DNA of 64,000 bases from Thermoanaerobaculia bacterium (GTDB lineage Bacteria > Acidobacteriota > Thermoanaerobaculia > Gp7-AA8), in assembly GCA_034665065.1 (NCBI GenBank), contig JAXDGL010000018.1, forward strand, positions 20,126 to 84,125, written 5' to 3'. Positions 11,395 to 54,462 of this stretch are shown here, one piece after another. The notes under the pieces were generated by a model. That model did not search any database. It saw only the letters and a program-made list of their open reading frames with translations, and had not been told where the DNA came from. The position numbers and the translations under genes are program-made. How positions within the stretch are numbered: the stretch's first letter is position 1; each line of letters starts with the position of its first letter.

Positions 11395-11475
11395 GCGTTG
11401 TCGGTTCTCGGTTCTCGGTTGTCAGTTGTCGGTTGTCGGTTGTCGGTTCTCGAGTTGTCGGTTGTCGATTCCTCC
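11395..11475. repeat. Tandem 7-bp array (gttgtcg / gttctcg units) forming the left flank of the IS110 element.
   Basis: About 11 heptamer units. The same unit family occurs at 13444-13480 and at 40968 and 41263. Confidence 0.85.
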
Positions 11476-11682
11476 CGTTGTCGGTTGATTAAGGTGTCGG
11501 GCTCGGATGCCATTGACGGCGGCGATCAGCTCGGTGAGATCGTCGTCCGTCGAATCTCGGGTCACGACGCGCCGGAGGCGCGAAAGACGGTAGAGAAGAT
11601 GGAGTGACCCGCGCGCTCAATGTACCTTTTCGTGGGTTGAACCCTTGAGAGGAACAGAGCCACATACAAGGAGGAACGGGTC

Positions 11683-12780
11683 ATGAAGATTATCTACTGG
11701 ATTGGGATCGACGATCACGCAGACAAGTGGACCATTGCGCAGTACCGAGGCGATGAAGAGCGGCCGAGTAAAGAGTTCGAGCTGGTTCCGGATGAGAAGG
11801 GCTGGCGGCGCCTGCTTTCTCATCTGAAGGGACTGGACGCTGAGGTACGGATCGTTTACGAGGCCGGCCCTTGCGGGTACGAACTGTATCGAAGGCTGAC
11901 CAAGGCGGGCTACAAGTGCCAGGTGGCGGCTCCGGCACTTACACCGCGGAAGCCGGGCGAGAGGGTAAAGACCAACCGCCGGGACGCAGCGAAGTTGGGT
12001 CGGTATCTTCGAGGAAACGATCTGACCTTCGTGGTCGTGCCGGACGATGATCGGGAATCGCTACGCGATCTGATGCGCTCGCGAGAGACGGCAGTGAAAG
12101 ACGTCGGACGAGTGCGGAAGCAGATCGTTCATCTTCTGCTTCGGTATGGACATCGATACCGCGAGGGACAGGCCTGGACGCTACGCTTCTGGTCGTGGTT
12201 GAAGAAGATCAAGCTAGCCGGCGCGCACAGCCGATTTGTGCTGGACGAGTTGATCAGCGAGCTCGAACATCGGATCAGCAAGGTCGAGCGATATGACGAG
12301 CAAGTCGAACTTGCCGCGCAGAGACCTGAGTATCAACCGTACTTTGCAGCACAGCGCACGCTGCGAGGAATCAATACGCTCTCGGCGATGACGGTTCTGT
12401 CCGAGTTGGGTGACCTGCGCCGGTTCGGTACGGCGCCGCAGATCATGTCGGCGGTCGGAGTGGTTCCGTCCGAGTCCAGCACGGGCGACAAGACCAACCG
12501 CTACGGAATTACCAAGACCGGCAACGCGCACGTTCGCCGGGTCATGGTCGAAGCAGCGTGGCAGTACCAGCGACGGCTCTCACTCGGACGAACCATCAAG
12601 GCTCGCCGGAAAGGCCAGCCCAGGGAGATCGTCGAAATTGCCGAGAAGTGCGAGAAGCGATTGAACGCAAAGTTTCACCGGCTCACGAGCCGGAACAAGA
12701 AGTCGACCGTTGCAGTCGTCGCCGTGGCGCGAGAGCTCATCGGCTTCGTCTGGGCGATCGGACAAATCGCGCATCCCTAG
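11683..12780 (+). CDS. IS110-family transposase with a DEDD N-domain and a Transposase_20 C-domain.
   Basis: ggagga ribosome-binding site. GIDDHADKW N-terminal motif. C-terminal LSELGDLRRFGTAPQIMSAVGVVPSESSTGDKTNRYGITKTGNAHVRRVMVEAAW. Confidence 0.92.
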   Translation: MKIIYWIGIDDHADKWTIAQYRGDEERPSKEFELVPDEKGWRRLLSHLKGLDAEVRIVYEAGPCGYELYRRLTKAGYKCQVAAPALTPRKPGERVKTNRRDAAKLGRYLRGNDLTFVVVPDDDRESLRDLMRSRETAVKDVGRVRKQIVHLLLRYGHRYREGQAWTLRFWSWLKKIKLAGAHSRFVLDELISELEHRISKVERYDEQVELAAQRPEYQPYFAAQRTLRGINTLSAMTVLSELGDLRRFGTAPQIMSAVGVVPSESSTGDKTNRYGITKTGNAHVRRVMVEAAWQYQRRLSLGRTIKARRKGQPREIVEIAEKCEKRLNAKFHRLTSRNKKSTVAVVAVARELIGFVWAIGQIAHP

Positions 12781-13085
12781 AACCAACACTTGTGCAGCCG
12801 TGCCGTCGGCCGAGGGTCCGGCAATCGAAAGGAGAACCCTCGACACCGGCTATTCCTGACACGAGAACACCCGTGATTCACGCACAGTAGATCGAGGAAG
12901 CTCCCGACGGACACATGTCGTGCGGAACCAACCCGCGTATATCAGTGTGATCATCGTCGCTGCATTCCCCTCGGTCGACGGGACGGCTGCAAACCAGAAT
13001 CAAAAGTCAAAAGCTCATCAAGGAGAAAAACAGAGTCAAAAGCAAACGAGCAGCGCGGTTTGACAAGTCACTCCATATCAGCCGG

Positions 13086-16919: not shown

Positions 16920-16953
16920 GAGCGGGGATTGTAAGTCCACGCAGCGTGCGGTT

Positions 16954-17126
16954 TGTCATTCTGATCCGGCGGAACCGCGGGGTGGAAGGGCGGTGGGAGC
17001 GGTGGAGCGCGGAGAGGAATCCCCTGACGAAAGAAAAAACGCGCTTCGAAGGAGGGGATTTCTCATCGTGCTGCACCGCTCACGCCCACCCTTCCACCCC
17101 GCGGTTCCGCCGATTCGAAATGACAG
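16954..17126. repeat. Repeat family A copy A3.
   Basis: tgtcattctgatccggcggaaccgcgg...ccgcggttccgccgattcgaaatgacag. Confidence 0.8.
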
Positions 17127-17143
17127 CGCCCACCTTGCGCTCC

Positions 17144-25893: not shown

Positions 25894-25897
25894 ATGC

Positions 25898-25920
25898 GCG
25901 GGGGTCGGGTGTCGGGGTCG
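25898..25920. repeat. gggtcgg-type heptamer array, inverted partner to 26308-26327.
   Basis: gcgggggtcgggtgtcggggtcg. Confidence 0.6.
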
Positions 25921-25949
25921 CAGTGAGGCGTTTAGCCGGCAGTGCGACC

Positions 25950-26284
25950 TGTCATTTCGAATCGGCGGAACCGCGGGGCGGGAAGGGCGGAGCGGTGGAG
26001 CACGATGAGAAATCCCCCGCCTATGAAACGAATACTTTCGATCGTCAGGGGATTTCTCTCCGCGCTTCACTGCTCCCACCCTTCCACCCCCGCGGTTCCG
26101 CCGGATCGGAATGACAGCGTCAGGAAGCGGGGGATTTCTCATCGTGCTCCACCGCTCCGCCCACCCGGCCTGCCCCGCGGTTCCGCCGATTCGAAATGAC
26201 AGGCGGCAGGAAGGGGGATTTCTCATCGTCCACCGCTCCCACCCCCCCTTTCACCCCCGCGGTTCCGCCGGATCAGAATGACAA
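25950..26284. repeat. Cluster of repeat family A: one full copy (25950-26117) plus two tandem right-half copies.
   Basis: Three successive ...ccgcggttccgccg(g/a)(a/t)tc(g/a)gaatgaca ends lie at 26117, 26202 and 26284. Confidence 0.8.
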
Positions 26285-26307
26285 ACTCACTCTGATCTCT
26301 GCTTCTC

Positions 26308-26327
26308 CGGCTCCCGACTCCCGCTCA
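26308..26327. repeat. ccgactccc-type array, inverted partner of 25898.
   Basis: ccggctcccgactcccgctc. Confidence 0.55.
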
Positions 26328-26385
26328 CCTGCGACACCCCGGTATAATCCGCCGCCATTTCAAAACCCACTAAGGAAAATCACTC

Positions 26386-29030: not shown

Positions 29031-30056
29031 TCATTCGATGCTGCGAAGTACGAGGTCATGTTCGAAGCGGTGATCGCCTTCGCGCGGGATCGCGTCATCG
29101 TCGCGTGAGATCACGGCGTTGCGCAACGTGACCGGCTCTGTGATCTCCACTCCGTGCGCGACGATGCAGTTGTCGAGAACCACTCCGGCTGCGATGCGGC
29201 AATCGTCCCAGATGACGCTGTCGCGGAGCTCGCCTTCGATCGCGCAGTTTGCACCGATGATGCTGCGCGCGATTGTGCCGCGCAGCGACGCCGTGTCGTG
29301 GGCGAGTGAGTCGCCGGTCACGCGCGTGCTCTGCGCCGGTGGCAGCGCGCCATCAACCGTGAGCGCCAACAGCGCGCGCGATGCGGTCATGTAGCGGAGC
29401 GGCGTGCCGATGTCGAACCACGGACCGTCATCGACGACGCCGGCCACGAGCTCCGCTCCGCTCCCGATCAGCGGCTGGTAGACCTCGTCGACGATTCCTG
29501 AGAATTCCTTGTCGGGCAGATAGCGGAAGACTCGCGTCGAAATCAGGTGCGTGCCGGAGAACATCAACGGCTCGCCCGTCCCTTTTCCGAAACCGGTAAT
29601 GAGATCGTTCTCGAACCAGACCGGTGTGAAGCGGTCGCCCGGCGGCGGATGCCGCAGAGTCAGAGCGGCCAGCGCGTCGCGCTCACGACGCAGCGAGCGG
29701 AGCGCGTCGTAGGGAGGAAACTGGATCGTGTCGCCGTTGACGAGGAAAAACTCGTCACCGCCCGATTCGAGGAGCGGCCGCACGCGGCGCACGCCTCCTC
29801 CGGTGCCGAGGATCTCGGCTTCGTAGGAGAATTCGAAATGGGCCTGACCGGCGTACGTATCGCGCAGATAGCGCTCGATCGGCTCCGGGAGATGGTGCAG
29901 GTTGACGACGAAGTCGCGAATGCCGGCCCCGAGGAGCGACTCGACCGCCCACGCCATGAGCGGCCTTCCGCACAACGGCACGATCGGTTTCGGGATCGTG
30001 TACGTGATCGGCCGGAGGCGCGTGCCGTAGCCGGCGGCGAGGATCATTGCTTTCAT
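29031..30056 (-). CDS. Sugar-phosphate nucleotidyltransferase with a C-terminal left-handed beta-helix (GlmU/RmlA-like).
   Basis: MKAMILAAGYGTRLRPIT...KP N-terminus; hexapeptide repeats at the C-terminus. The longer ORF upstream only translates the aatgttg array. Confidence 0.8.
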   Translation of the reverse strand: MKAMILAAGYGTRLRPITYTIPKPIVPLCGRPLMAWAVESLLGAGIRDFVVNLHHLPEPIERYLRDTYAGQAHFEFSYEAEILGTGGGVRRVRPLLESGGDEFFLVNGDTIQFPPYDALRSLRRERDALAALTLRHPPPGDRFTPVWFENDLITGFGKGTGEPLMFSGTHLISTRVFRYLPDKEFSGIVDEVYQPLIGSGAELVAGVVDDGPWFDIGTPLRYMTASRALLALTVDGALPPAQSTRVTGDSLAHDTASLRGTIARSIIGANCAIEGELRDSVIWDDCRIAAGVVLDNCIVAHGVEITEPVTLRNAVISRDDDAIPREGDHRFEHDLVLRSIE

Positions 30057-30093
30057 GTGGGTGTTGTCAGAGATGCTGCGCGCTGAAAGGCGG

Positions 30094-30312
30094 AATGTTG
30101 AATGTTGAATGTTGAATGTTGAGTGTTGAATGGGAGCCGCGCTTTCGAGCAGTTGCAATGACGGCGCCGACCGCCGACAGGCTTTCCCTAGAGCTCGTAT
30201 CCAGTTGTGATCTACTATTACGAGTTACTGCCATTGGTATGTTTTATATCAACATTTAACATCCAACATTTAACATCCAACATTGAACATTCAACATTGA
30301 ACATTCAACATT
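30094..30312. repeat. Inverted tandem-heptamer arrays (aatgttg)n / (caacatt)n bracketing a ~115-bp unique core.
   Basis: Left arm 30094-30133 has ~6 units; right arm 30250-30312 has ~9 units. Confidence 0.9.
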
Positions 30313-30344
30313 CCGACTCTCATTTGAACGTTCCCGCCGGGCAA

Positions 30345-30902
30345 TCACAACTGCTCCGGCGGGAAAATCATGTGCTCCCCGAGATCGGGGCGCGTCCGCC
30401 GCGCGAGCCGGTAGAGATCGGAGTACGTCTGGCGGATGGCCTGCTCCATCACCATTCCCAGCTCGCCGGCGATCGTGCGTATCACGTCGATCGGTCCTTC
30501 GATCTCGAAGTAGTCGCCGATGGGCGTGCGGTCGAGCACGACTTCGACGTCGCGGATGCGCCAGACCTCGCGGAACTTCTGGTAGCGGAAAACCGGCTTG
30601 TATCCGAGGGAGTCGAAGAGCTGGATGGCGAGCTCGAAACTCTCGACGCCCGTCTGCACCTCCTCGCGCGACTTCACACCGCCTTCGATCGACATTGGTC
30701 CTTTGTAGGTTGCGATCGAGTACTTCCCGAACTTGCGCACACGGAGCAGCGAGCCTTTCGTGCGCAGCTCCCCGCGCCGGTCGAGAACGATGTTGTCCTC
30801 GAACGTTTCGGCATACAGGCGTTGCCCGCCGATCTCGTGCAGTTTGCGAACGAGATCGGCGCGGTCTTTGAGGGCGAACTTGACTTCGATTTCCTGGGCC
30901 AT
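30345..30902 (-). CDS. CYTH-domain protein (class IV adenylyl cyclase / triphosphatase-like).
   Basis: N-terminal EIEVKF (ExExK) motif and a CYTH fold-like pattern. Confidence 0.75.
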   Translation of the reverse strand: MAQEIEVKFALKDRADLVRKLHEIGGQRLYAETFEDNIVLDRRGELRTKGSLLRVRKFGKYSIATYKGPMSIEGGVKSREEVQTGVESFELAIQLFDSLGYKPVFRYQKFREVWRIRDVEVVLDRTPIGDYFEIEGPIDVIRTIAGELGMVMEQAIRQTYSDLYRLARRTRPDLGEHMIFPPEQL

Positions 30903-30909
30903 GGGGTTA

Positions 30910-31089
30910 AAGGATGAAGGATGAAGGGTGAAGGATGAAGGATGAACGCGTGTAGATCACTGCGGCCAGTCTCGATGAAACGATGAGCATTCCGTGCAAC
31001 GCTCGAATCACAACTTTTGGCGAAGTCATGATCGATACGAAAGGTTCATCCTTCATGCTCATCCTTCATCCTTCCGCCTTCATCCTTCG
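30910..31089. repeat. Inverted tandem-heptamer arrays (ggatgaa)n / (ttcatcc)n bracketing a ~95-bp core.
   Basis: Left arm 30910-30946, right arm 31045-31089. The right arm supplies the last seven codons of pgk. Confidence 0.9.
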
Positions 31090-32259
31090 AATCGCCTCCA
31101 CTCCCGGCAACGTCGCGCCGGAGATGAATTCGAGAGATGCGCCGCCGCCGGTGGAGATGTGGCTGATGCTGCTGGCGAAGCCCGATGCTTTCACCGCCTC
31201 GACCGATTCGCCGCCGCCGACAACGGTGATGGCCTGCGACGCCGCCACCGCTTTCGCCATCGCCATCGTGCCGCGCGCAAAGTCGCGCTTCTCGAAAACG
31301 CCCATCGGTCCGTTCCAGAAAATCGTCCGGGCATCGAGCAGCAGTCCGCTGTATTCGGCGATCGTTTTCGAGCCGATGTCGAAGGCCTTCTGCCCCGCGG
31401 ACAATCCGCCGGCGACATCCACTTCATCGATGCGCGAGGGTGATTCGAGATCGTCGGCGACGATGAGGTCGGACGGGAGCGTCACGTTCGTGATCCGGTT
31501 CGCGACTTCGATGGAGTCCTTATCGACGAGCGAGCCTCCCATCGGCACGCCACGCGCCGCCAGGAACGTATTGGCCATTCCGCCGCCGATCAGGACCGTG
31601 TCGGCGAGCTTGACGAGCGCTTCGAGCGGCTCGATCTTCCCTGCGATCTTCGCGCCGCCGAGGAGCGCGACGAACGGGCGCTCGGAGACGTTGGTGATCT
31701 TCTGCAGGAACTCGATCTCTTTTGCCAGCAGCAAACCGCCGGCAGTCCGATCGGCGCCGAACAGCCGCGGCAACGCTTCGATCGATGCATGCGCGCGATG
31801 ACAGGCGCCGAAGGCGTCGTTGACATAAAAATCGGCGAGCTTGCGAAGCTGTGCGGCGAAGCCTGCGTCGTTCGCTTCTTCACCGGCGTGAAAGCGAAGG
31901 TTTTCGAGCAGCAGAACCTGCCCCGATTCGAGCGCGGACGCTTTCGCTTCCGCCTCCTCGCCCACGCAGTCGTCCGCCCATTGAACGTCGGCACCGAGCA
32001 GTTCGGCCAGTTTTTCGCGCACCGGTGCGAGCGAGTACTTCGTCTTGCGCTCCCCCTTCGGCCGGCCGAAGTGGCTGGCGATCACGATGGCCGCACCGGC
32101 GCCGCGCAGACGCTGCAACGTAGGGAGCGTCTCCTCGATGCGCGTGGCGTCGGCGATGCGCGTGCCGTCGAGCGGCACGTTGTAGTCGACGCGATAGAAG
32201 ACGCGCGCTCCCTTCGCGAGATTCAAATCGTCGAGCGTGCGGATTTGAATGAGACTCAT
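31066..32259 (-). CDS. pgk: Phosphoglycerate kinase.
   Basis: MSLIQIRTLDDL...VDYNVPLD. There is an ATGA start/stop overlap with gap. Confidence 0.95.
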   Translation of the reverse strand: MSLIQIRTLDDLNLAKGARVFYRVDYNVPLDGTRIADATRIEETLPTLQRLRGAGAAIVIASHFGRPKGERKTKYSLAPVREKLAELLGADVQWADDCVGEEAEAKASALESGQVLLLENLRFHAGEEANDAGFAAQLRKLADFYVNDAFGACHRAHASIEALPRLFGADRTAGGLLLAKEIEFLQKITNVSERPFVALLGGAKIAGKIEPLEALVKLADTVLIGGGMANTFLAARGVPMGGSLVDKDSIEVANRITNVTLPSDLIVADDLESPSRIDEVDVAGGLSAGQKAFDIGSKTIAEYSGLLLDARTIFWNGPMGVFEKRDFARGTMAMAKAVAASQAITVVGGGESVEAVKASGFASSISHISTGGGASLEFISGATLPGVEAIRRMKAEG

Positions 32260-33281
32260 ACGCTTTGAAGGGCGTCCTTCTTCACCCGCGCCACGTAGGC
32301 GATCAAATCGAGGATGCGATTCGAGTAACCCCATTCATTGTCGTACCACGCCAGCACTTTGTGCATGTGCGGATCGACGGAGCGGGTGAACGTCGTGTCG
32401 ACGATCGACGAATGGGGATTGTGATTGAAGTCGACCGAGACCAACTGCTCGTCGGAGAAGTCGAGAATCCCTTTGAGCGCGCCCTTTGCCGCGGCGCGCA
32501 GCACGTCATTGATCTCATCGGCTCCAGTGGCGCGCTCGGTCCGGAAGGTGAGATCGACCAGCGAGACATTGGGCGTCGGGACGCGCACGGAGATGCCGTC
32601 GAATTTTCCTTTCAGCTCCGGCAGCACGAGGCCGACCGCTTTTGCGGCGCCGGTCGTGGTGGGAATCATCGACATCGCCGCAGCCCGGCCACGCCGCACA
32701 TCCTTGTGCGGGAGATCGAGGATCTCCTGATCGTTCGTGTACGAGTGGATCGTGGTCATGATCCCCATCTCGATGCCGAACTTCTCGTGCAGCACTTTCG
32801 CCACCGGAGCCAGGCAGTTCGTCGTACACGATGCGTTGGAGATCACGCGATGCGCAGCGGGATCGAAGACGTCTTCGTTGACGCCGATGCAGATCGTGAC
32901 GTCCGCGTCTTTCGACGGCGCGGAGATGATGACGTGCTCGACCGGCTTGCGCAGATGCCGCGACGCTTTCTCTTTCGAGGTGAAGCGGCCCGACGACTCG
33001 ACGACGATCTCGACGCCGAGGTCGTTCCAGGGAATCTCGGCGGGATCGGGAGACGAGAAAACGCGCAGCTCTTTCCCGTCGATGGTGATGCTGTTGGCGG
33101 TGTGGCCGACGGTATTCGGGATCGTGTGATGCACCGAGTCGTACTTGAGCAGATACGCCAGCGTCGCCGCGTCGGTGAGATCGTTGACGGCGACAAATTC
33201 AATTTCCAGATTGCGCTCGAGCGCGGCGCGAAGTACGTTGCGCCCGATGCGCCCGAAACCATTGATTCCTACCCTGATCAT
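32256..33281 (-). CDS. gap: Glyceraldehyde-3-phosphate dehydrogenase.
   Basis: INGFGRIGR...ASCTTNCLAP. Confidence 0.95.
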   Translation of the reverse strand: MIRVGINGFGRIGRNVLRAALERNLEIEFVAVNDLTDAATLAYLLKYDSVHHTIPNTVGHTANSITIDGKELRVFSSPDPAEIPWNDLGVEIVVESSGRFTSKEKASRHLRKPVEHVIISAPSKDADVTICIGVNEDVFDPAAHRVISNASCTTNCLAPVAKVLHEKFGIEMGIMTTIHSYTNDQEILDLPHKDVRRGRAAAMSMIPTTTGAAKAVGLVLPELKGKFDGISVRVPTPNVSLVDLTFRTERATGADEINDVLRAAAKGALKGILDFSDEQLVSVDFNHNPHSSIVDTTFTRSVDPHMHKVLAWYDNEWGYSNRILDLIAYVARVKKDALQSV

Positions 33282-40087: not shown

Positions 40088-41009
40088 CTGCCGCTCCGAT
40101 GATGTAGAGAATGCCGAACAACCATTCCAACGCGCCTGCCAGAACCAGGCAGCGATTCAGCTCCGCGCCGCGGCTGCGCGCAACGCGCGCCAGAAGTGCG
40201 ATCGCGAGAACGATGGCCAGCATCGGAATCATCATCGTCCGTTCGTGGCGCAAATACGCGATCGCGGCGACGCAAAGGAAGGGAATCAGCGCGAAGACGA
40301 CGATCTCGGCGTTCGCGAAACCTGGTCCGAAGCGCGCGGCCAGCGTCCGCTTGTTGCTGGTGCGGTCGTTTTCGAGATCGCGCAGATTGTTGATGGCGAG
40401 GATGACCACGGAGAGCGAGCCGACGGCAAGGCTTCCGATCCACGCGCTCCGATCGAGCGTCAGGCGTTGCAGATAGAACGAGCCGCAGACGGCGACGAAG
40501 CCGAAGAAGAGCATCACGAACACTTCACCGAGTCCGTGGTAGGCGAGCGGATAGGGTCCGCCGGTGTAGGCGTAGGCGGCGAGAATCGACGCGACGCCGA
40601 TCGCCGCGATCGGCCAGCCGCCTCGAAGAATGAGCGGGATTCCGCAAAGCGCGGCGATCAGGAAGCAGACATATGCGCCGCGCAGCACGGAGTCTGCGTC
40701 GAGCAGACCCGCCTGCGTCACGCGCAAGGGGCCGAGCCGTGTGTGTGTGTCCGCCCCCTTCTTGAAATCGAGCGCGTCGTTGACGAAGTTCGTGCCGATC
40801 TGGATGAAGACCGCGCCAAGGAGGGCGAAGAGGAACGAAGGCCAATGCGTCTTCGCGACGCTGTTGATCGCGAGCGCGGTACCGACGAGCACGGGCGTCA
40901 CCGCCGCGGCAAGCGTCTTCGGTCGGGCAGCGAGAAGCCATGGGTTCATGACAGCGCCTCGGGGCGCGTTGCCGATTGCCGGTTGTCGGTTCGCAGGTTC
41001 TTCCCACAC
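40080..41009 (-). CDS. menA: 1,4-dihydroxy-2-naphthoate polyprenyltransferase (UbiA family).
   Basis: Multi-TM protein with UbiA-type Asp-rich motifs NDALDFKKGAD. Confidence 0.85.
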   Translation of the reverse strand: MWEEPANRQPAIGNAPRGAVMNPWLLAARPKTLAAAVTPVLVGTALAINSVAKTHWPSFLFALLGAVFIQIGTNFVNDALDFKKGADTHTRLGPLRVTQAGLLDADSVLRGAYVCFLIAALCGIPLILRGGWPIAAIGVASILAAYAYTGGPYPLAYHGLGEVFVMLFFGFVAVCGSFYLQRLTLDRSAWIGSLAVGSLSVVILAINNLRDLENDRTSNKRTLAARFGPGFANAEIVVFALIPFLCVAAIAYLRHERTMMIPMLAIVLAIALLARVARSRGAELNRCLVLAGALEWLFGILYIIGAAVG

Positions 41010-41291
41010 TCTTCCAAGCCAGCTAAACCTACGAATCGAGCGCCTTCTCCCCCACGCTTTTTGTGGAGGAGAAGGTGCCGAAGGCGGATGAGGGGGGCGT
41101 TAATCGCGGCAGGCGCTGTGTTCGACGCAAGGTTGCTGGGAAGTGCTAAAAATCCCCACCCCCTCATCCGGCCTTCGGCCACCTTCTCCCCCACTGAAAA
41201 GCGTGGTGGAGAAGGGGCTCGATCAAGATGGATGGCGGGGCTGAAAAACGGTGGGCAGAGCGAGACAACCGACAACCGACAACCGACAACG
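40968..41291. repeat. Composite palindromic element: inverted (gttgtcg)/(cgacaac) arrays around a ~190-bp near-perfect palindrome.
   Basis: Outer arrays lie at 40968-40995 and 41263-41291. The inner palindrome runs ccttctcccccacgctttttgtggaggagaaggtgccgaaggcggatgagggggg ... cccccctcatccggccttcggccaccttctcccccactgaaaagcgtggtggagaagg. Confidence 0.8.
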
Positions 41292-41334
41292 CGCGAAGTG
41301 CACATCGTCGAAGCACACATGGGCTCAGCACACA

Positions 41335-42159
41335 TCAAGGAAATCTCGGGAACTTCTTGAAATCGGGCTTGCGCTTTTCGACGTACGCGTCGCGGCCTTC
41401 CTGTGCTTCCTCCGACAGGTAGTAGAGCAGCGTGGCGTCTCCGCCGAAATCGAGAAGACCGATCTGACCGTCGCAGTCGGCGTTCATTGCGGCTTTCAAA
41501 AAACGTAGCGCCGTCGGCGAGAGCTCGAGCATCTCGCGGCACCACTTCAGCGTTTCTTCTTCGAGCTGCGCGAGCGGGACGACGGTGTTGACCAGACCCA
41601 TGTCGAGCGCCTGGTGCGCGTCGTACTGCCGGCAGAGGAACCAGATCTCGCGCGCTTTTTTCTGGCCGACGATGCGGGCCAGATACGATGATCCGAGTCC
41701 TGCGTCGAACGAGCCGACGCGCGGACCGGTCTGGCCGAAGCGCGCGTTGTCAGCGGCGATCGTCAAATCGCAGACGACGTGCAGCACATGACCGCCGCCG
41801 ATCGCGTAGCCGGCAACCATCGCCACGACCGGCTTGGGCATCGAGCGGATCTGCTTTTGGACATCGAGGATGTTGAGGCGTGGGATTTTCTCGTTCGGAT
41901 CGACGTAGCCGCCTTTGCCGCGGACGCGCTGATCGCCGCCGGAGCAAAACGCGTCGGGGCCCTCGCCGGTGAGGATGATGACGCCGATCTCGCTGTCGTC
42001 GCGAGCCATGTCGAGCGCCTGCTTCATCTCGTTCACCGTCAGCGGCCGGAATGCGTTCCGCACCTCGGGGCGATTGATCGTGATCTTGGCGATGCCATCG
42101 CCGGTTCGCTCGTACTTGATGTCCTGAAAGTCGTGAAGGCTCGTCCAAGTCTCTGCCAT
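41335..42159 (-). CDS. menB: 1,4-dihydroxy-2-naphthoyl-CoA synthase.
   Basis: Crotonase fold, [16 protein letters not shown] ... [22 protein letters not shown]. Confidence 0.95.
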
Positions 42160-49153: not shown

Positions 49154-49336
49154 CGGGTGTCGGGGACCGGGGGTCGGGAATCGGAAATAAGCCTTCTTGC
49201 GCGAGCACGTCACCTCCGACACCGAACATCGATTTTTGATCCGCAGATGACGCAGATCGACGCAGATGAGCTTTGATCTGCGAGCATCTGCGTAATCTGC
49301 GGATCACCCACATCCACTTTCCGACTCCCGACTCCC
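49154..49336. repeat. Inverted (gggtcgg)/(ccgactc) heptamer arrays around a triple-repeat palindrome.
   Basis: Left arm gggtgtcggggaccgggggtcgggaatcgg; right arm ccgactcccgactcccg. Confidence 0.8.
49248..49305. promoter_or_regulatory. Candidate operator: three direct cgcagat units mirrored by three atctgcg units.
   Basis: gatccgcagatgacgcagatcgacgcagatgag / ctttgatctgcgagcatctgcgtaatctgcggatc. It lies between the TetR gene start and the upstream gene run. Confidence 0.4.
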
Positions 49337-49352
49337 GAAACGCGACACCCTC

Positions 49353-52719: not shown

Positions 52720-52723
52720 AGGC

Positions 52724-52821
52724 AGGGACGAGGGACGAGGGATGAGGGAAGGGGAACGGCTGGACCAGGTTTGCGAGGGTTCTCTCCCTCGTCCCTTATC
52801 CTTCGCCCCTCGTCCCTGTTC
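52724..52821. repeat. Inverted (gacgagg)/(cctcgtc) heptamer arrays around a ~25-bp core.
   Basis: gggacgagggacgagggatgagggaaggggaacgg ... ctccctcgtcccttatccttcgcccctcgtccctgttcc. Confidence 0.8.
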
Positions 52822-53544: not shown

Positions 53545-53650
53545 TCAATGACCACCCACGCGCCTCGAAGAATCAAGATCAAGAATTACCGTCCGACCGG
53601 TCGGTTTGTTCTTTCGCGCAATGTAGGCTGATCGTGCGGCGGGTGTCAAG

Positions 53651-53804
53651 TGCGGTGTGGGGGGTAGGGAGTGGGGAGTGGGGAGTGGGAGCAGAAGCAG
53701 TGTAGTTACGGTCCGCCGCAGTCCTTACTATCGCAAGTATCCACAGAGCCGGCACCATCGCCGATTCAACTCCCACTCCCCACCCCCCACTCCCCACACC
53801 CCAC
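53651..53804. repeat. Inverted (gtgggga)/(tccccac) heptamer arrays around a ~75-bp core in a divergent promoter region.
   Basis: gtgcggtgtggggggtagggagtggggagtggggagtgggag ... ctcccactccccaccccccactccccacaccccac. Confidence 0.85.
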
Positions 53805-53826: not shown

Positions 53827-54462
53827 ATGTCGCTGCTCATGCAACGCAAAGGTCCGCCCGCTCCGCTGCCACGTCTCGAAGGAAAAGAAGTTCTCACCGG
53901 CCCGAATCCGGAGATCGCCAAAGTCAAAGGCGTCATGTTCGGTGGCCGCAAACAGTTCCTCGCCGACACCGCCGGTGATGAAGGTTTTGCTGCTATTCTC
54001 GCGAAGGTCTCGCCGAAAACGGCCGGTTACGTAAAGACGCCGCTGGCATCGAGCTGGTGCGAATTCTCATCGGTGATCGAGCTCGATCGCGCCATCCACG
54101 AGACGATGAAAGCGAAGTATCCCAATGTTCTCGCGCTCATCGGCGCGGCGTCGGCGGAGTTGGGAATCGGCCGCGTCTACAAATCGCTCGACAGCACGGA
54201 GCTTCTGAAGTTTCTCGAAAGCCAGGCGCTCTTTCACAGCCAGTTTCAGAAGTTCGGCAATGTTCGTTTCGAGAAGACTGCCAGCGGCGGACGGATGATC
54301 TGCAGCGACTATCCCGTCTACAGCCCAATCTACTGCGCCAGCGCGGTCGGCTTTTATCTCGAGTCGATCCTGCGCCACGGCGGCGGCGAGCCGAGCGTGG
54401 TCGAAACGAAATGCCACACGCTGGGCGATTCGCACTGCACGTTTGAGATGACCTGGAGATAG
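53827..54462 (+). CDS. V4R-domain-containing protein with a putative small-molecule-binding domain.
   Basis: C-terminal ...VETKCHTLGDSHCTFEMTW matches the V4R C-x-x-G-D-x-x-C-x-F pattern. The N-terminal region resembles H-NOX/V4R-associated folds (IGAASAELG). Confidence 0.5.
   Translation: MSLLMQRKGPPAPLPRLEGKEVLTGPNPEIAKVKGVMFGGRKQFLADTAGDEGFAAILAKVSPKTAGYVKTPLASSWCEFSSVIELDRAIHETMKAKYPNVLALIGAASAELGIGRVYKSLDSTELLKFLESQALFHSQFQKFGNVRFEKTASGGRMICSDYPVYSPIYCASAVGFYLESILRHGGGEPSVVETKCHTLGDSHCTFEMTWR

Follow-up and report, generated by a model that had tools for sequence, protein, structure and literature searches.

Palindromic repeats between bacterial genes include the repetitive extragenic palindromic (REP) sequences, bacterial interspersed mosaic elements (BIMEs), and REP doublets forming hairpins (REPINs), which constitute a conserved sequence family per genome, are linked to REP-associated tyrosine transposases (RAYTs), and lack internal tandem periodicity. 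Tandem heptanucleotides were reportedly described by Mazel et al. 1990 in cyanobacteria (Calothrix) as short tandemly repeated repetitive (STRR) sequences, tandem families in non-coding DNA with few unit families per genome. Here, we analyze a 64,000-nucleotide stretch of a metagenomic contig from a Thermoanaerobaculia bacterium (Acidobacteriota), termed the window, in which seven loci consist of a tandem heptamer array, a spacer, and the reverse-complement array. Two of these hairpins, hairpin 1 and hairpin 2, lie between genes of the gap-pgk operon and form the focus of this study. All coordinates count within the whole 64-kb window; W denotes the window copy of an element and L### a related locus.

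The closest precedent is found in Xanthomonas, where ~185 (GGGANTN)n arrays occur per genome (Rehm et al. 2015, PMC4692102), with 70-75 close convergent pairs that lie on average 28 nt from the upstream open reading frame (ORF) and not at the same genes across species (PMC4692102). Among the heptamer arrays of Nostoc, only few pairs are inverted (PMC4692102), and the Calothrix STRR heptanucleotides are cited there as well. An excess of heptamers among long simple sequence repeats (SSRs) of prokaryotes was found by Mrazek et al. 2007, as summarized in PMC4679880 and PMC4692102, and MacGregor 2015 (PMC4679880) summarizes the proposal that ~7 nt is the length interacting with the polymerase during slippage. 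No mechanism has accompanied this heptameric excess since it was noted in 2007, and the lineage studied here offers a rich natural experiment, with dozens of units, filled and empty alleles at identical housekeeping-operon junctions across 80 genomes, near-absolute polarity of the arms, and a clear distinction from terminator-like hairpins.

The acidobacterial hairpins resemble the Xanthomonas (GGGANTN)n arrays in that they are intergenic heptamers near the end of the upstream ORF, number hundreds per genome, form mostly inverted pairs with converging G-rich strands, vary in copy number, and are not conserved at the same genes in related species. In contrast, Xanthomonas has one unit family per genome, read via G-quadruplexes (G4s), whereas at least six families occur within the 64 kb of the window and dozens per lineage; most units cannot form a G4, periods of 8 and 10 nt occur, and junctions of otherwise overlapping genes are filled. 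With the STRRs they share dispersed, non-coding families of tandem heptanucleotides in particular lineages and a few units that recur per genome, although STRRs are usually described as direct arrays and the unit sequences differ. Like REP sequences and REPINs, they are intergenic, palindromic, often located between co-directional genes, and present or absent between strains; unlike them, their sequences differ between loci, and no Y1 transposase (RAYT) was matched among the 18 window proteins scanned against Pfam. Long SSRs of the type described by Mrazek et al. likewise have a dominant period of 7, an intergenic location, and polymerase slippage as the proposed cause; the summaries available describe them as direct arrays, whereas inverted pairs are found here. 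The arrays also have at least three tandem 7-nt copies, lie mainly between genes, are dispersed, and vary in copy number between relatives, as heptameric long SSRs and STRRs do. The initial annotation had seen no known repeat class in them; tandem heptamers are, however, a recognized SSR class, of which the cyanobacterial STRRs are an older case, and inverted heptamer arrays are known in Xanthomonas (PMC4692102). Thus, the inverted heptamer SSR architecture has precedent while its mechanism does not, and the acidobacterial version is new in being many-unit, independent of G4s, and in filling operon junctions.

Tandem Repeats Finder (TRF) confirmed period-7 arrays at all loci named earlier, with at least 11 arrays of 3.4-12.6 copies in the window (outside the gap-pgk operon at 40968-40991, 41264-41290, 49321-49338, 52724-52749, 53649-53689, and 53772-53804), and a scan of the window returned eight period-7 arrays versus none at periods 6 and 8-13. 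In hairpin 1, the G-rich arm comprises ~6 AATGTTG units at 30084-30132 (TRF 30093-30132, 5.7 copies, 93% matches) and pairs with 30274-30322 over 49 nt (88%). The C-rich arm comprises ~9 CAACATT units at 30249-30322 and is read by TRF at 30249-30313 as period 7 x 9.3 and as period 14 x 4.5, a 14-nt higher-order repeat. Between the arms lies a loop, or "core", of 116 nt of unique sequence (30133-30248) without an Rfam match above chance. Hairpin 2 has a G-rich arm of ~5 GGATGAA units at 30905-30946 (TRF 30910-30946, 5.3 copies), 3 nt from the start codon of the CYTH gene (30900-30902, minus strand), a loop of 98 nt of unique sequence (30947-31044) without similarity elsewhere by BLAST, and a C-rich arm of ~6 TTCATCC units at 31045-31088 (TRF 6.4 copies), whose minus strand encodes the last pgk residues and the TGA stop; here the inverted repeat 30916-30945/31059-31088 spans 30 nt (93%). 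On the transcribed strand, the RNA of 30080-30325 folds at -95.2 kcal/mol (z = -8.1 versus dinucleotide shuffles) and that of 30900-31095 at -86.3 kcal/mol (z = -8.2). The hairpin architecture is far beyond chance.

These data bear out the initial annotation in its central claims: an architecture shared by seven loci, with TRF arrays and complementary arms at each, and unequal arms (~6 versus ~9 units at 30094/30250) that point to slippage within each arm. Its core length of 25-190 nt was too narrow, as the measured values are 32-385 nt. Its assignment of a different 7-mer to each locus holds roughly, with the reservation that 25898 and 49154 share GGGNGTC, that GTTGTCG is also found at 11397-11487, and that units recur within a genome.

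To place the two focal hairpins in their lineage, we compared them with 80 related loci, retrieved by searching GTDB species representatives with the CYTH protein; these derive from Thermoanaerobaculia/Acidobacteriota soil metagenome-assembled genomes (MAGs), in keeping with the Acidobacteria guess of the initial annotation, show 75-95% identity, and were ordered by the unweighted pair group method with arithmetic mean (UPGMA). The pgk-CYTH-NTP-transferase synteny is kept in 80/80 loci, and both junctions are bimodal in length. The pgk-CYTH junction is empty in 39 loci (≤16 nt, typically TGAATG), filled in 39 (36-163 nt), and carries a 1.6-kb insertion in one, whereas the CYTH-NTP-transferase junction is empty in 44 loci (≤21 nt, typically an ATGA overlap) and filled in 36 (56-307 nt). 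Nearly every filled junction is one long hairpin, with few holding an aperiodic palindromic element instead, and the filled junctions mostly fold at -45 to -100 kcal/mol. The hairpins usually start 0-3 nt past the stop codon or include it (median stop-to-array distance ~3 nt) and end 0-13 nt before the start codon. Hairpins are gained and lost at gene junctions, including those with abutting or overlapping stop and start codons. The intergenic positions given in the initial annotation, comprising operon junctions and one divergent region, were likewise confirmed, including a 102-nt hairpin-filled gap amid overlapping genes.

The junction hairpins are polymorphic, fast-evolving, and not terminator-like. 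Among close relatives (≥90% CYTH identity), empty and filled junctions and different units are intermixed. Period-7 units in the junctions comprise GAAGGAT, GAAGGCA, GAACGAT, GAATGAT, GAATGTT, GGTGTCA, GTTGTCG, GAGCGCA, and others; the period is sometimes 8 or 10 in relatives, with the period-8 units GGTTGCNN and GGTCGCGC and with period 10 being rare (L023, L055). For the AATGTTG hairpin, the unit counts per arm are 10/7 in W, 7/6 in L010, 5/6 in L014, 4/4 in L015, 4/2 in L016, and 4/15 in L024. Some empty junctions retain short palindromic remnants, e.g., ATCTGGTTGCAACCAAACC in L012. For micro-evolution among near-identical strains, an exact-protein look-up matched only the window's own contig (460,755 bp, JGI metagenome 3300044737). 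Individual junctions also show more elaborate states: two different hairpins stand side by side in the CYTH-NTP-transferase junction of L075, one with 5 versus 20 GAACGAT units, and one arm in the pgk-CYTH junction of L008 is expanded as a ~32-nt higher-order repeat.

General rules emerge from the window and the 80 loci together (866 kb). Heptamer arrays occur in inverted pairs in 166/222 cases, giving 85 pairs, while adjacent direct pairs number only six. Period 7 accounts for 129 arrays in the 80 loci, versus ≤12 for each of periods 5, 6, and 8-12 and 34 for period 4. The 244 long inverted repeats include 90 with period-7 arms, 18 with period-8 arms, and 133 that are aperiodic or degenerate; in a 10-sequence subset, mononucleotide shuffles gave none versus 66 in the real sequences. 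The median loop of the 90 heptamer hairpins is 21.5 nt. Heptamer pairs lie outside called genes in 80/85 cases and in co-directional gaps in 57/85, and hairpins in the Thermoanaerobaculia lineage are spaced at roughly one per 10 kb. Units are reused in 8/45 within-genome pairs versus 167/3943 pairs between genomes, and ATGA, the start/stop overlap of empty junctions, is found in 5/41 units versus 4.3% expected (p = 0.03), a modest enrichment.

A further, near-absolute rule concerns polarity. The G/purine-rich arm is 5' in 89/90 heptamer hairpins (41 distinct units), with a 5' arm composition of A 0.30, C 0.13, G 0.40, and T 0.17 and with G>C in 38 units. As the element is a palindrome, this G-first polarity holds on both strands. 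An exact search for (GAAGGAT)3.7 returned >120 metagenome contigs; among 80 examined, which span 28-72% GC, at least three ATCCTTC units lie downstream of the array, no more than 350 nt away, in ~33/80 and upstream of it in 0/80. Consequently, G-first polarity is shared by unrelated bacteria.

The AATGTTG orthologues share flanking sequence, so the hairpins are homologous; their loops nevertheless range from 116 nt in the window down to 19 nt in L015 and L016, with L010 (~45 nt) and L014 (30 nt) in between. Likewise, the GAAGGAT hairpin has a loop of 98 nt in the window versus 12 nt in L012. By BLAST of the seven window cores against the window and the fetched loci, unique sequence makes up both focal cores and those of 52724 and 53651, other dispersed palindromic repeats lie in the cores of 25898 and 40968, and the 49154 core holds a nested hairpin of 9-nt period. 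Since loops are unlike one another between loci and between orthologues, it is the arms that make up the element, around a loop that varies and is devoid of information. These comparisons rule out a conserved payload in the cores, and the emphasis that the initial annotation placed on cores bracketed by arms is not supported.

From this evidence it appears very probable that each locus is one strand-symmetric palindrome with short-unit tandem arms, usually of 7 nt and sometimes of 8 or 10, and a variable loop. For the origin of these palindromes we slightly favor a slippage-driven, self-templating palindromic SSR that is tolerated at gene junctions, and within this reading the mechanism, i.e., slippage plus intra-hairpin templating plus neutral tolerance, is put forward tentatively and with somewhat less than even confidence. 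Arms would lengthen and shorten by slipped-strand mispairing, which is suggested by unequal arms (10/7, 4/15, and 5/20 units) and by the 14-nt and 21-nt higher-order repeats found by TRF. Complementarity might then be restored at the DNA level, on both strands, by intra-hairpin template switching or quasipalindrome correction, without selection on one transcript; the view of the initial annotation that some process keeps the arms complementary is supported. In quasipalindrome template-switch mutagenesis (the Ripley model, mentioned in PMC4060949), imperfect inverted repeats are perfected on both strands. The equal treatment of both strands matches the absence of a sense-strand bias reported below; in contrast to the hairpins, template switching is a mutational process and no element class, and its link to the acidobacterial hairpins is an analogy. 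Palindrome deletion would remove elements and leave short remnants behind, and units would spread among the loci of one genome through some copying route.

The same reading offers a possible reason why the elements persist within operons, namely that a flush stem would rejoin the upstream stop and the downstream start. With both codons brought side by side, the terminating ribosome could melt the stem that hides the next start, termination-reinitiation coupling could survive the hairpin, and insertion between translationally coupled genes could be tolerable. Effects on expression are probably side-effects rather than a designed function.

Several points weigh against this explanation. Its slippage and intra-hairpin templating steps are inferred, and the junction lengths, which are bimodal and leave ~21 to 36 nt unoccupied, can be explained by block arrival just as well as by rapid growth in place. 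Moreover, 8-mer hairpins sit exactly between TGA and ATG without similarity to the flanks, which favors import. Simple slippage also fails to predict a polarity that is G-first almost without exception. The idea of translational coupling is drawn from geometry. As a test for copying from arm to arm, mirror order of unit variants between the arms, observed in 65/95 (p = 4e-8), is weakly positive, with arm delimitation biasing the test. Finally, the 80 loci are related and all sampled around one operon, so that counts are not independent, and statistics on types of intergenic region rest on crude GC3-based gene calls, which are approximate outside the three homology-anchored genes.

Polarity is left unexplained by the rival explanations as well. 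Among candidate causes, a C-rich arm that is transiently single-stranded would load Rho and might be avoided, template switching might be favored once the G-rich strand has been synthesized, or the repeat might be added at a DNA break, to each 3' end, prior to rejoining, akin to telomere-telomere fusion. The head-to-head order (G-rich)n, filler, (C-rich)n is what such an addition would be expected to give.

As one alternative, the hairpins could act as functional RNA, namely as intrinsic or bidirectional terminators, 3'-end protectors, or processing sites that set expression within operons, as REP sequences do in E. coli. The very stable folds, the onset of arrays a median of ~3 nt after stop codons, the location of 57/85 pairs in co-directional gaps, and the proximity of the Xanthomonas arrays to the upstream ORF (PMC4692102) would fit such a role. 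We nevertheless consider it unlikely. No U-tract accompanies the stems: no T-run follows the 3' arms in the focal junctions or in those of the relatives, and the region 29900-31300 contains no terminator-like site (stem plus T-run) and one weak promoter-like site, a yield not above that of shuffled sequences. Beyond the sampled operon, convergent gaps hold fewer periodic hairpins than expected (3/47 versus 23% expected, p = 0.005) and an excess of aperiodic long hairpins, as terminators should show (39/84, p = 3e-6). Thus, neither a stem with U-tract nor enrichment at operon ends and convergent gaps was found, which argues against intrinsic termination. Hairpins are further found in regions of divergent promoters (53650-53804, and the gap between the IF-2B gene and gap in relatives), and within one conserved housekeeping operon some close relatives carry them while others do not.

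Strand symmetry further argues against a role of the transcript. For 73 junction hairpins with known transcription direction, the mean folding energy is -60.6 kcal/mol in sense versus -62.0 kcal/mol in antisense (Wilcoxon p = 0.11), the more stable strand is the sense strand in 35 and the antisense strand in 38, and G:U pairs number 246 versus 261. Selection on one transcript would tolerate G:U pairs on that strand only; symmetry of folding and of G:U pairs therefore speaks against RNA-level selection on the sense strand and in favor of either upkeep at the DNA level or arms too young to have diverged. Searches for known RNAs gave a concordant picture, with no Rfam match at gathering thresholds and no tRNA or transfer-messenger RNA (tmRNA) in the window. 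A permissive scan of the focal region returned only sub-threshold eukaryotic microRNA (miRNA) and small nucleolar RNA (snoRNA) models, which reflect the long hairpin, nothing more.

A second alternative, which we likewise regard as improbable, holds that the hairpins are non-autonomous mobile palindromes (miniature transposable elements with inverted repeats [MITEs], REPINs, or elements like palindrome-associated transposable elements [PATEs]) whose copying depends on a transposase gene at another place in the genome. Clean presence and absence with exact stop-start boundaries would be expected of such elements, as would reuse of units at different loci of one genome, hairpins nested in hairpin loops, (GAAGGAT)n hairpins in contigs of 38-66% GC, and 8-mer hairpins unrelated to their flanks. 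However, the boundaries do not require transposition, since selection alone leaves them exact where the original gap is 0 nt. Furthermore, dozens of units occur, neither termini nor loops are conserved and target sites are not duplicated, the two arms of a hairpin differ in length, as do the arms of orthologues, and no transposase is associated; other copies of an IS110-family element located in the window are flanked by small GC hairpins and no arrays.

Comparison with defined repeat classes leads to the same result, in line with the poor fit to a simple terminator, REP, enterobacterial repetitive intergenic consensus (ERIC), BOX, and CRISPR (clusters of regularly interspaced short palindromic repeats) proposed in the initial annotation; terminator, REP, and CRISPR were tested here, and none of them matches. 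REP sequences and REPINs share a palindromic sequence per genome, whereas here units differ and loops are unrelated. MITEs were dismissed as cores are not conserved and no target-site duplication beyond stop and start codons is found at the junctions. CRISPR arrays have direct repeats of 23-50 nt with unique spacers, in contrast to contiguous, inverted arrays of 7-nt units. Integron attC sites also fail as a model: these imperfect palindromes follow a cassette ORF and carry RYYYAAC at the 5' end and GTTRRRY at the 3' end, whereas AATGTTG, which happens to match GTTRRRY (as GTTGAAT), lies in the 5' arm, opposite to its place in attC; the remaining units show no match, and the flanking genes form the conserved gap-pgk operon and no cassettes.

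Instead of passive slippage, an active repeat-adding or hairpin-copying enzyme system might write the palindromes, for which a slipping repair polymerase, a reverse transcriptase, or a hairpin-specific recombinase would be candidates. The addition of repeats to break ends considered above for polarity belongs to this reading. Polarity in unrelated bacteria, bimodal lengths, arbitrary loops, and reuse of units within genomes together fit such a system, to which we assign a small probability.

Regulation through G-quadruplexes or i-motifs, an idea put forward for the G-rich heptamers of Xanthomonas and Nostoc, is a still weaker candidate. GTGGGGA (53650) and GGGNGTC (25896, 49155) could form G4s, and the orientation of the G-rich arm is fixed. 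Yet GGG occurs in only 9/41 units, so a G4 is no common denominator; AATGTTG and GGATGAA cannot form a three-tetrad G4, and it is arm complementarity that is conserved, not the G-runs, all of which makes this explanation highly doubtful. An artefact or chimera of metagenome assembly can practically be dismissed: the window is a metagenome contig and repeats can mislead assemblers, but the same junctions with the same architecture recur in ~40 independent MAGs (MEGAHIT, SPAdes, and long-read), including the two complete chromosomes OY970284.1 and OY970380.1, with intact flanking genes and lineage-consistent variation, which upholds the elements as real.

For the slippage-driven palindrome, as for any other model of origin, the DNA-level, strand-symmetric, and polar rules set constraints, and they weaken the G-quadruplex as a general explanation. 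Two questions become testable with this lineage, namely how stable hairpins between translationally coupled genes affect expression and which process generates them. In practice, the elements break short-read assemblies, lengthen ORF calls (the pgk C-terminus and a 375-aa NTP-transferase), and could serve as hypervariable strain markers.

The genes around the focal hairpins form a minus-strand operon in the order gap (32256-33281), pgk, CYTH gene, NTP-transferase gene, and histidine kinase gene, as assigned by Pfam. Hairpin 2 fills the pgk-CYTH gap, and hairpin 1 lies in the CYTH-NTP-transferase gap. The phosphoglycerate kinase gene upstream of hairpin 2 (31066-32334, minus; Pfam PGK) is called with 397 aa on the same contig in public annotation, and its true start is likely ~75 nt inside the listed ORF. 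Its frame enters the arm of hairpin 2, where a repeat unit supplies the TGA stop, so that the ORF ends at 31066. In L003, L005, L008, L011-L013, L028, L067, L076, and L077, pgk likewise ends at a unit-supplied TGA with GAAGGAT, GAAGGCA, or GAACGAT hairpins, and reading into the repeat yields a C-terminal extension of a few residues compared to relatives with an empty junction. The CYTH-domain gene between both hairpins (30345-30902, minus; Pfam CYTH) has 80 orthologues. The NTP-transferase gene downstream of hairpin 1 (29031-30056, minus; Pfam NTP_transferase) has a start fixed by homology in 80 loci; a public gene call stretches it to 375 aa, into the array on its other side. The 1.6-kb insertion between pgk and the CYTH gene belongs to L022, while the two genes abut in most relatives. 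A 9-mer, ATCACAACT or its complement, read by eye, is present at three places less than 1 kb apart, once in each focal loop (30204-30212 and 31010-31018) and once just within the 3' end of the CYTH gene (30343-30351).

The other five loci of the window vary the same theme. Between the DPBB/SPOR gene and ndk (25896-26340), a G-rich arm of the GGGNGTC type at 25896-25928 (TRF 25901-25920 and direct reading) starts 2 nt past the DPBB/SPOR stop, and its C-rich partner, read directly at 26306-26340, is a degenerate match that is complementary only with an indel. A dispersed palindromic repeat of another kind, with matches at 2208-2618 and 16940-17139, fills the 377-nt loop (25929-26305). This dispersed family (CTGTCATTTCGAAnCGGCGGAACCGCGGGG...GGGGATTTCTCATCG, units of ~82-208 nt) forms tandem or inverted clusters at 2208-2618, 16940-17139, and 25943-26283, and elements resembling it (GTGTCATCCCGAGCG...GGGGATCC...GCTCGGGATGACAC) fill pgk-CYTH or CYTH-NTP-transferase junctions in L031, L050, L058, and L075. 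The second GGGNGTC-type locus (49155-49350), between the AMP-binding-enzyme gene and the TetR gene, pairs its G-rich arm at 49155-49187 with the C-rich arm at 49318-49350, found by inverted-repeat search, over 33 nt (82%). Nested in its loop is a hairpin at 49237-49306 with arms of 9-nt period, (CGCAGATGA)3 plus complement, and an 8-nt loop (TRF 49242-49269, period 9). In L003 (8643-8736), L017 (8639-8731), and L016 (9881-9947), a long ORF continues without interruption through a GGGNGTC hairpin; translation of the hairpin, if it occurs, would give a Gly/Arg-rich and then Pro-rich linker, in either one gene or two genes fused by the ORF call.

Between the SDR gene and the KAS III gene, the hairpin at 52723-52818 fills the whole 102-nt gap (52720-52821) of two minus-strand fatty-acid-synthesis genes, within a gene run whose other junctions are 4-nt overlaps (50822/50825, 51703/51706); its G-rich AGGGACG arm (52723-52754) pairs with the C-rich arm (52787-52818) over 32 nt (84%). 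In the divergent intergenic region, a G-rich GTGGGGA arm at 53650-53696 faces a C-rich arm at 53765-53804 that ends 22 nt before the ATG at 53827, with 53657-53696/53765-53804 pairing over 40 nt (88%). The locus at 40964-41294, between the enoyl-CoA hydratase gene and the UbiA gene, combines a G-rich GTTGYCG arm (40964-40991; TRF and inverted-repeat search) with a C-rich arm of (GACAACC) x 3.9 (41264-41294; TRF, 100% matches). Its loop (40992-41263) holds a second long inverted repeat (CTTCTCCCCCAC...GTGGAGGAGAAGG...CCCCCTCATCC), pieces of which are also found in L056, L058, L062, and L076, and a 15-nt tandem repeat (GCGAAGCACACATCG x 2.9) follows the hairpin at 41293-41336.

An unpaired plus-strand array of (GTTGTCG) x 12.6, without an inverted partner, lies at 11397-11487 (TRF and sequence reading). 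Downstream of it, an IS110-family element occupies 11588-13080, with a transposase ORF at 11683-12780 on the plus strand (Pfam DEDD_Tnp_IS110 and Transposase_20). We had considered that IS110 targets heptamer arrays, as the transposase lies between two GTTGTCG arrays, but the conserved ends of the element are ~100 nt from the upstream array, and the link was dropped because five other copies adjoin small GC hairpins and no arrays. The hairpins next to the other IS110 copies (L202-L207) are GC-rich and differ from copy to copy, which suggests hairpin or REP-like sites as targets. More than 6000 homologues were found, mostly on contigs of 1.2-2.9 kb, indicating that the element breaks assemblies. 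The element has a conserved left end, GGTAGAGAAGATGGAGTGACCC, and a conserved ~300-nt 3' non-coding region finishing ...GTCACTCCATATCAGCC, and a guide (bridge) RNA, as is typical of the family, may be encoded in its non-coding part.

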